Virus record (IMG/VR): IMGVR_UViG_2690316347_000014
Span: 1-4,604 of that record
Length of the DNA stretch: 4,604 nt
From: a virus
Taxonomy: Duplodnaviria; Heunggongvirae; Uroviricota; Caudoviricetes
Strand: one strand, 5' to 3'
The notes below the pieces were generated by a model, which saw only the letters and a list, made by a program, of their open reading frames with translations, was not told the origin of the DNA and ran no database searches. The position numbers were made by a program, and so were the translations under genes. Shown here in pieces: positions 1,856-2,275 of the stretch (position 1 is the first letter of the stretch; the number at the start of each line of letters is the position of its first letter).

Positions 1856-1874
1856 GTAACGCTGGCAGCGTTAC
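1856..1874. promoter_or_regulatory. 19-bp palindrome GTAACGCTGGCAGCGTTAC (copy 1 of 3), candidate origin iteron or operator; half-site GGTAACGC at 1832-1839 and TGTAACCGC at 1915-1923 nearby
   Basis: Perfect inverted repeat with 9-bp arms around a 1-bp centre. Lies in the initiator linker-coding region between the poly-Glu repeat and the T8 run, a lambda-ori-like position. Confidence 0.5.
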
Positions 1875-2064
1875 CTTTTCGTTTCAGTTCGCGTATTTTT
1901 GTTACTCGCTCGTTTGTAACCGCCCGTTTTTTTTAGAGCTTTTTCCGTTATGACGTTCAAAGTTAGGTAGAGAAAGCCCACCGTCATTTTCGACCAGCCA
2001 TCCAACCTGAATTAACGCATCAGCAAAACCAGACATAAAAGTGATGCGATCTATTGCACTTTTT

Positions 2065-2083
2065 GTAACGCCGCGAGCGTTAC
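2065..2083. promoter_or_regulatory. 19-bp palindrome GTAACGCCGCGAGCGTTAC (copy 2 of 3), candidate iteron/operator
   Basis: 7-bp arms GTAACGC / GCGTTAC with a 5-bp spacer, flanked by T..A which extends the symmetry; inside the initiator N-terminal coding region, about 209 bp from copy 1. Confidence 0.5.
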
Positions 2084-2256
2084 AATCTGCATTACCGTCT
2101 ATCATTTGTTGATCCGCCCATGCCCAGAAGCGAATAACCTTCCCTAATGCGGCATCTGGATCAATATTCAGAATCTCAGCAAGCCTGAATATTTCCGGCT
2201 TATCCGGCGTAATAACCTCGAGCTTTATCCAGTTTGAAGCCATTTGTTTTCACCTT

Positions 2257-2275
2257 GTAACGCTCGCAGCGTTAC
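2257..2275. promoter_or_regulatory. 19-bp palindrome GTAACGCTCGCAGCGTTAC (copy 3 of 3), directly upstream of the initiator SD; candidate autoregulatory operator/iteron
   Basis: Same GTAACGC-N5-GCGTTAC core, about 192 bp from copy 2; lies 1 bp from the AAGGTG SD of the initiator gene (ATG at 2243). Confidence 0.5.

Follow-up and report, generated by a model that had tools for sequence, protein, structure and literature searches.

We have analysed a stretch of viral DNA of 4,604 nucleotides (nt) from a member of the Caudoviricetes (IMG/VR record IMGVR_UViG_2690316347_000014, positions 1 to 4,604), which we will call the window. By its gene content it is the immunity and replication module of a cryptic prophage of the Rac/CP-933P type. 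Our subject is the palindrome GTAACGC-N5-GCGTTAC, which is present in and around the replication initiator gene of this module and probably forms part of a replication origin. A sequence scan finds three exact copies with start-to-start spacings of 209 and 192 bp, in agreement with the first-pass annotation of this DNA. Each copy extends to TGTAACGC...GCGTTAC(A). The initiator gene and the sites which belong to it are the following:

1451–2243, minus strand: replication initiator gene, a pseudogene here (PHROG 2509 'replication initiation protein', E = 1.2e-89)
1799–1831, on the minus (gene) strand: pure polypurine tract of 33 nt, (CTCTTC)n on the plus strand; it codes for the acidic linker EEEE and may serve for unwinding of the DNA or for binding of single-stranded DNA
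1832–1839: distal half-site, GGTAACGC or, in gene orientation, GCGTTACC; it abuts the polypurine tract, and the right arm of site B is 23 nt away
1856–1874: site B, a perfect 19-bp palindrome at gene nt 369–387, in the linker-coding part, which reads G-N-A-A-S-V-T
2065–2083: site A, a perfect palindrome at gene nt 161–179, in the part coding for the N-terminal domain, which reads C-N-A-R-G-V-T
2089–2096: degenerate half-site GGTAATGC (gene strand), 12 nt upstream of site A
2257–2275: site C, a perfect palindrome in the non-coding leader, at −32 to −14 from the initiator ATG

When up to three mismatches are allowed, the motif has a mean of 0.20 matches in 200 dinucleotide shuffles, and three matches are found in none of them. 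The window contains 16 copies of the pentamer GTAAC, with 5.2 expected, and nine of the 16 fall within 1833–2275. The initiator ATG is at 2241–2243 and its Shine-Dalgarno sequence (SD), AAGGTG, at 2251–2256 of the gene strand, so that site C, which starts at 2257, does abut the SD. Two half-sites had also been pointed out: the one at 1832–1839 is real and is kept family-wide, while that at 1915–1923 (TGTAACCGC) is present but weaker, conserved among close relatives only. The half-site next to site A falls in a 12-nt (4-codon) insertion peculiar to the Rac-like lineage (DGNAD-CNARGVT against DGNAG-SVT in the protein alignment); a direct half-site at −12 of site A is found in 10 of 67 loci. We found no DnaA boxes in 1700–2400 with one mismatch allowed. 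GATC has no overall enrichment; three copies are within 1785–1848.

Compared with its intact homologues of 262 amino acids (aa), the initiator is disrupted by two additional nt in an A-run (A8 for A6, 1927–1934), by 12 additional nt of GAGGAA repeat and by a 10-nt deletion. It is a frameshifted pseudogene, therefore the origin could fire only with the protein of an intact copy acting in trans. Site B does lie in the linker-coding region, but the T8 run beside it (1927–1934), which had been listed with it, is a mutation and not an origin feature: intact homologues have six bases there, which makes it the pseudogenising indel. The spacing between sites A and B is 207 bp in intact genes, against 209 in the window. 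The protein has a winged-helix-like N-terminal domain (aa 1 to about 105, from the predicted fold), a basic/acidic linker and a DnaT-like C-terminal domain. The intact protein of 262 aa matches no Pfam family at E ≤ 1, so there is none on the N-domain, PF04492 included. Its C-terminal part alone overlaps PHROG 678 'O-like', and residues 170–262 match the structures 2ru8 (C-domain of DnaT, E = 9.5e-5) and 9zbt (E = 3.2e-4) in the PDB. PF17948 is precomputed on many of the homologues.

We will start with the distribution of the palindrome in other genomes. A tblastn search of phage genomes with the intact initiator gave relatives at 28–96% identity. Phages of Klebsiella, Enterobacter and E. coli have the same palindrome at gene nt 148–166 and 357–375; in Xanthomonas CP2, Ralstonia QkW1, Pseudomonas VW-6S, PAN70 and others it is kept at about nt 148. 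The 104-aa fragment of the window, used as a protein query, gave 33 proteins, mostly truncated and from Shigella and E. coli, and a profile search widened the sampling. The protein-first sample consists of 80 genome loci picked by homology to the N-domain alone, from Enterobacterales, Pseudomonas, Planctomycetota, Verrucomicrobiota/Akkermansia and others. A matched pair of palindromes at about nt 148 and 337–392 is found in 70 of the 80, as compared with none of 80 control regions of equal size downstream and four of 80 upstream. These same two places in the gene are occupied in prophages of Enterobacterales, Pseudomonas, Xanthomonas, Planctomycetota and Verrucomicrobiota.

The motif-first sample gave at least 120 viral-contig stretches with the exact 14-base motif. 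Among the matches listed, 100 of 120 stretches encode the initiator N-domain (hidden Markov model E < 1e-5), and in these 100 the motif is at gene nt ~148–165, ~337–441 or −32 to −44, with two occurrences elsewhere. Of the 20 stretches with no match to the N-domain, at least three are clearly origins of the initiator family severed by the end of the contig, and a fourth is probably one. A protein-first scan of viral contigs gave almost only near-identical Rac-like loci; it served for a test at the population level and not for diversity. The pooled set has 157 non-identical loci, 100 of them selected by the motif. Site A is present in 143 (gene nt ~148–165), site B in 153, both in 141 and site C in 29, so that site B is the most conserved site of the family. 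In the DNA which flanks the family loci (1.05 Mb) there are 43 matches to a relaxed motif, a density about 80-fold lower than at the initiator loci themselves. In the literature searched we found no published description of this palindrome or origin element.

Some individual loci deserve a comment. Those from Planctomycetota, Verrucomicrobiota and Akkermansia (L153–L174, L182, L186) have N-domains which share 50–57% identity with the enterobacterial N-domain, and they keep both the TAACGC-N5-GCGTTA sites and the purine tract, despite the great distance between these phyla; the recognition sequence and the origin layout appear to be unusually well conserved over such hosts. Two viral contigs (L040, L069) have the motif and no detectable homologue of the N-domain. 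They also have several half-sites similar to TAACGC/GTTAC and a tract with 95% pyrimidine, and may represent a related origin with an initiator which has diverged further. A contig of 1551 bp assigned to Streptomyces hayashii (L199) has a Pseudomonas-type initiator with Pseudomonas-type sites, and is likely a contamination of the Streptomyces assembly.

Site B is the centre of a more complex arrangement. Additional TAACG half-sites flank it in 65 of 69 protein-first loci; they form a ladder of 11–12 bp, direct upstream and inverted downstream, at offsets −12/−11 (43 loci), +11/+12 (45 loci) and +23 (13 loci). From Enterobacterales to Planctomycetota a half-site GCGTTACC is kept 11–12 or 23 nt after site B, where it directly precedes the purine tract. 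The sites had been considered merely dispersed, which does not hold for the family, where the linker site centres a cluster of half-sites; the window retains one that flanks it (1832–1839). Directly after the last half-site comes the polypurine tract, with a typical sequence AGAGAAGAGAAGAGAAGA. For the best stretch of 24 nt after site B the purine fraction has a median of 0.92, as compared with 0.67 in control stretches. All arginine codons of the tract are AGA (91/91, against 4.8% elsewhere, p = 1.5e-64), which means that the DNA dictates the conserved peptide ALP-REEKRREE. Of this core the window has only site B, the half-site at 1832–1839 and the 33-nt (GAGGAA)n run at 1799–1831, where the tract has a GC content of 0.43–0.47 and an AT skew of −0.56 to −0.65. 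The number of GAGGAA units varies among near-identical prophages (L001, L138): the window has five, E. coli FDAARGOS_944 and O157:H7 have three, and S. flexneri SFBU1023 has fewer, which suggests slippage inside the proposed unwinding element.

Site B, the half-sites and the purine tract are read as the core of an origin because their layout parallels that of the lambda origin. We consider it probable that the palindromes, the flanking half-sites and the polypurine tract are a replication origin which lies inside the initiator gene and is bound by the initiator of the prophage itself. We are about equally confident of the broader statement that the palindromes are sites for binding of the initiator, either as origin or as operator. 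A lambda-type origin embedded in the initiator gene had already been proposed; it is the best supported of the early suggestions, from the conservation at the DNA level, the co-variation with the N-domain and the polypurine tract, although the layout and the initiator family differ from those of lambda.

From these features we infer binding, unwinding, recruitment of the loader and autoregulation in the following way. Dimers of the winged-helix-like N-terminal domain would recognise both TAACG half-sites of each 19-bp site. Site B (1856–1874) and the half-site at 1832–1839 would nucleate an oligomeric complex beside the polypurine tract (1799–1831), where the duplex would open. The DnaT-like C-terminal domain would then hold the single strand and recruit YdaV, the DnaC-like loader, together with the helicase of the host. 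Sites A (2065–2083) and C (2257–2275) would be auxiliary; they could contribute cooperative or looping contacts, and site C, which abuts the SD, could also give negative autoregulation. The sites lie within the part of the gene which encodes the domain that presumably reads them, so that specificity and target would be inherited as one cassette.

Site C requires separate consideration. It is present in 29 of the 157 loci, all of the Enterobacterales lineage, at −32 to −44. The sequences upstream of it are of several unrelated kinds, and loci in which the preceding gene abuts the initiator gene lack it. Thus it is likely an autoregulatory operator, still a candidate, and also the 5' boundary of the origin module. 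The suggestion that the initiator regulates itself is plausible for this copy, given its position and its unrelated contexts, but not for the others. The strongest alternative to an origin is an extension of this role: all the palindromes would be operators by which the initiator or another repressor throttles the replication operon, with the true origin elsewhere. The properties of site C speak for it, and so does the fact that inverted repeats are the standard operators of Rep dimers in iteron plasmids such as pSC101 and pPS10, where Rep monomers bind to direct iterons. However the most conserved site (B) is about 370 nt inside the gene, at the centre of the ladder, and the polypurine tract after it is under constraint as DNA; such a layout resembles that of an origin and not of an operator. 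Furthermore, a promoter scan of 1700–3100 gave no sigma-70-like promoter at the threshold of the tool, hence none near any of the sites; therefore a promoter at site C is neither supported nor denied. We consider it unlikely that the palindromes are operators only. The two roles are not mutually exclusive, and an origin inside the gene with an operator at site C is the reading we favour.

The nearly regular spacing of about 200 bp had been suggested as a possible sign of DNA looping. This interpretation is not supported in that form: the A–B spacing varies between 189 and 259 bp in the family, reaches 279–288 bp in the epsilon15 subgroup and has no helical periodicity. Looping between the sites remains as a possible feature for which the spacing gives no positive support.

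A second alternative is that the palindromes form hairpins, either in RNA or in single-stranded DNA, which influence stability, processing or translation of the operon transcript, with the AGA-rich tract as a pause at rare codons. All three sites are on one probable transcript, AGA is rare in many hosts, and constraint on codons alone cannot distinguish selection on DNA from selection on RNA. The changes found in the arms speak against hairpins. In the GTAACGC class there are 93 changes in one arm which break pairing, as compared with three which give G:U and two which are compensated. Both arms keep the TAACG core almost without change, while the supposed loop is free: we have found 74 distinct spacers, with arms conserved across phyla. 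Among 45 distinct Rac-like sequences (at least 94.7% identity) 10 of 15 spacer columns vary, against five of 42 arm columns, all five being singletons. The extra half-sites of the ladder are unable to pair as hairpins, the type of palindrome switches with the N-domain, and there is no T-run after the stems in gene orientation. There is no selection for pairing: changes of one arm which break it fit two half-sites read independently, not a hairpin, a cruciform or an RNA stem. It is therefore very unlikely that hairpins explain the sites. An intrinsic terminator at site B was also considered and rejected, as the sole terminator-like call is on the antisense strand and within chance expectation.

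The co-variation between sites and protein is apparent in the more distant relatives, where diverged N-domains each have their own type of palindrome at comparable positions of the gene. Ralstonia phage Raharianne has GTAGACG-N6-CGTCTAC twice in the gene (nt 153, 369); epsilon15, SPN1S and BUCT711 have GTCCGC-N7-GCGGAC twice per gene (nt 65, 344–353); and a Planctomycetales contig has GTTGCGC-N5-GCGCAAC, also twice (nt 148, 337). Natural domain swaps are found in Klebsiella phages. L003 and L006 have the same C-terminal 100 residues and the same downstream genes, but their N-domains are 38% identical and their palindromes differ. On the other hand, L003 and L004 share the same palindrome, with N-domains which are 92% identical and C-domains which are only 23% identical. 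At the level of sequence comparison these swaps confirm that the type of palindrome follows the N-domain.

The other genes of the window which we have identified are the following; several of them encode helix-turn-helix (HTH) proteins:

3030–3437, plus strand: CI-like HTH repressor
2726–2953, minus strand: Cro/YdaS-like gene
2321–2742, minus strand: YdaT/CII-like gene ydaT, with a 1-nt deletion around 2704
698–1444, minus strand: gene for YdaV, a DnaC/IstB-like AAA+ helicase loader (Pfam PF01695, E = 1.1e-19), called ydaV in annotated homologous loci
261–683, minus strand: DUF977/Ren-like gene for a winged-helix protein

Another possibility is that the protein on the palindromes is a host factor or one of these neighbouring regulators (CI-like, Cro/YdaS, YdaT/CII-like or the DUF977 winged-helix protein). 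Several HTH proteins are indeed encoded within 2 kb of the palindromes, and YdaT, which is a tetramer (PMC9986795), could span two of the sites. Such binding, which had been proposed for the adjacent HTH or YdaT-like proteins, finds no support in the comparison of loci: the initiator is the sole open reading frame (ORF) family common to all of them, none of the neighbouring families co-occurs with the sites, and the next commonest real neighbour is present in 42 of 64 loci. The YdaT of CP-933P footprints TTGATT-N6-AATCAA (PMC9986795), a motif which the palindromes do not resemble and of which there are weak copies elsewhere in the window. A host factor would have to be shared by hosts of several phyla. 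It would also have to explain why phages of one host have different palindromes, as in Ralstonia (QkW1 and Raharianne) or in E. coli/Salmonella (GTAACGC and GTCCGC). We give this explanation a very low probability, slightly below that of hairpins.

The weak YdaT-type boxes are of some interest in themselves. Copies with two mismatches are found at 2307–2324 and 2732–2749; at least two matches are present in 9 of 200 shuffles. The copy at 2732–2749 is at the junction of ydaS and ydaT, where the published OM site lies (PMC9986795). The one at 2307–2324 follows ydaT closely and precedes site C by about 30 nt; it might supply the YdaT tetramer with its 'missing' partner site.

Finally, the palindromes might be a by-product of a peptide, G-N-A-x-S-V-T, which is conserved twice in the protein. 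Many loci do read both intragenic copies in the same frame, with similar heptapeptides. The codons are however fixed well beyond the usage of the same genes, as found at site A in 61 protein-first loci: valine is GTT in 58 of 61 (30% elsewhere, p = 8e-25), glycine GGT in 60 of 61 (21%, p = 1e-36) and asparagine AAC in 60 of 61 (69%, p = 3e-8). Two reading frames are in use at site B: 121 loci translate it as N-A-x-x-V-T and 30 as V-T-x-x-A-L, while the remaining frame is excluded by a TAA; site C is not coding at all. The peptide of site A falls in a loop of the predicted structure with low confidence (residues 52–56, predicted local distance difference test, pLDDT, < 50), which tolerates an insertion of four residues. 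A protein origin of the repeats is thus the least probable of all explanations, close to negligible. The conservation of the sites is independent of coding, as the comparison with related prophages was intended to establish, and the constraint acts on the DNA, not on the protein nor on base pairing. Long antisense ORFs over the initiator gene cluster in 45–57 of 64 loci; most simply they would be shadow ORFs due to a conserved, purine-skewed sequence.

A number of points weigh against an origin bound by its own initiator. The label of initiator is based on the PHROG annotation and on gene order, and the confidence of the predicted fold is moderate (pLDDT 73.5). In the literature searched there is no binding, unwinding or replication experiment on this initiator family. 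The unwinding role of the tract is proposed by analogy, since its GC content of 0.43–0.47 does not make it notably AT-rich. Some lineages which retain site B have a degenerate site A, whose role is therefore uncertain. The distance between sites A and B has no helical phasing: the Rayleigh statistics are flat over 9–12 bp, with R < 0.2 for unique spacings. As for the samples, the unbiased figures are those of the 80 protein-first loci and not those of the pooled set, and the codon and conservation statistics count related sequences as independent.

We can now compare this element with known systems. The origin of lambdoid phages lies in the O gene (lambda, Stx phages P27, 933W), in the code for the linker between a DNA-binding N-domain and a C-domain which recruits the loader; it has dyad-symmetric sites of about 19 bp, consistent with binding of a dimer, a one-sided, strand-asymmetric tract of lower GC and a loader gene immediately after, and its extra sites add residues to the initiator protein (PMC7466680). 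These features have a parallel in the layout described here, where recruitment of the loader is predicted and the tract, strongly strand-asymmetric but only moderately low in GC, is a candidate for unwinding. In particular the predicted initiator sites are in inter-domain code, with site B between the N-domain and the DnaT-like C-domain. The differences are also clear. The N-domain has no detectable homology with that of lambda O (no Pfam match, PF04492 included) and the C-domain is DnaT-like. Instead of four to six tandem iterons there is one full palindrome with one to four half-sites at steps of 11–12 bp. One or two further full sites are found about 200 and 400 bp upstream, one in the DNA-binding-domain code and one in the leader, and the distances to the other full sites are 190–260 bp. 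In place of a simple AT-rich block there is a polypurine run, (AGAGA)n or (GAGGAA)n.

The iteron plasmids (pSC101, pPS10, F, P1) are similar in the use, by a winged-helix initiator, of the same half-site both inverted, in full palindromes of which one is near the translation start of the initiator itself, and directly repeated, which here would be the ladder at site B. This double use suggests a dual role as operator and origin. Iteron plasmids have an array of direct iterons of about 17–22 bp, whereas here we find half-sites of 5–8 nt, spaced 11–12 bp and placed head-to-head. DnaT (primosomal protein i) is related through the C-terminal ~90 residues of the initiator, which match its single-stranded-DNA-binding C-domain (2ru8). 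However it has no counterpart of the N-terminal domain or of the embedded sites, and it is not a sequence-specific origin binder.

The Rac prophage of E. coli K-12 has the same module and gene order (repressor, cro-like ydaS, ydaT, initiator, ydaV). A functional origin of Rac, oriJ, is reported (PMC3945230; Potrykus et al. 2000, as cited in PMC11014345). We found no published fine structure of oriJ for comparison. The K-12 YdaU is annotated as DUF1376, whereas the initiator studied here matches no Pfam family; this difference in annotation, the only one by which we set them apart, suggests different N-domains. On the best reading of these comparisons, what is new here is an origin embedded in the initiator gene, which is a known kind of origin, in an unrelated initiator family and with another layout of sites, of which we have found no published description. 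A more complete scheme is possible, somewhat short of an even chance: an undescribed origin architecture present in several phyla, in which a winged-helix initiator has its own palindromes in the code of its DNA-binding domain and linker. Its unwinding element (AGAGA)n would be translated as REEKRREE from rare AGA codons, specificity, sites and protein would evolve together as a cassette of overlapping codes, and looping would join the widely spaced sites in an initiation complex which also regulates the gene.

Returning to the window, its initiator frame stops at 1451, only 7 nt before ydaV, which is downstream, and YdaV is the presumed partner of the C-terminal domain of the initiator. Near-identical loci with intact genes are found in E. 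coli FDAARGOS_944, where the initiator is WP_038340159.1, and O157:H7; Shigella sonnei and S. flexneri have annotated N-terminal fragments of the initiator identical to that of the window. Compared with the intact 140-aa gene of E. coli FDAARGOS_944, ydaT is split into two ORFs by the 1-nt deletion. Since ydaT and the initiator are both broken, the replication module is decaying, and the element in the window is a relic unless it is complemented in trans.

The ends of the window are also peculiar, with a perfect inverted repeat of 74 nt (1–74 and 4531–4604). The homology with E. coli prophages is limited to 75–4530, and one match which reaches base 1 overlaps an 'IS3-like element IS600 family transposase'. 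Probably the window is an assembly contig between two inverted copies of the insertion sequence (IS) IS600, an arrangement typical of Shigella. Given these ends and the identical initiator fragments of S. sonnei and S. flexneri, the DNA probably derives from a Shigella contig. Positions 3872–4105 contain an orfA fragment of the IS3 family (HTH_Tnp_1, E = 7e-21), which overlaps from just upstream a truncated gene of the Rha family at 4095–4577, whose match to Phage_pRha begins at position 18 of the profile. Intact E. coli loci have about 1 kb more in this region, with a Rha gene of 849 bp. This arrangement indicates an IS-mediated rearrangement. On both sides of the CI-like repressor gene (2961–3005 and 3509–3551) there are clustered motifs of the type CCTAAGG/CCTTAGG, including a near-palindrome TCCTTAG-N6-CTAAGGA at 2961–2980 and an inverted repeat of 16 nt (2990–3005 and 3509–3524). 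They resemble operators of the OR and OL type; their number is not above chance, and it is their clustering which is suggestive.

If our interpretation is correct, an origin and its recognition sequence would be defined for an uncharacterised family of initiators, with more than 2,000 protein clusters at 90% identity and no Pfam model of its N-domain. The family ranges from prophages of Shigella, O157:H7 and Klebsiella and the epsilon15-like phages of Salmonella to phages of Pseudomonas, Xanthomonas and Ralstonia, and it reaches Akkermansia and Planctomycetota. Its palindromes, of at least four types matched to variants of the N-domain, would be a natural series of specificity switches in which the co-evolution of a domain and its site could be studied. 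They would also be a case of overlapping codes, where a DNA signal sets the choice of codons and even the amino acids (GNAxSVT, REEKRREE). The 14 specified bases of the motif are a sensitive marker of this replication module, as 83% of the motif matches listed in viral contigs are within the initiator gene. The origin itself could seed new replicons, of either narrow or broad host range.

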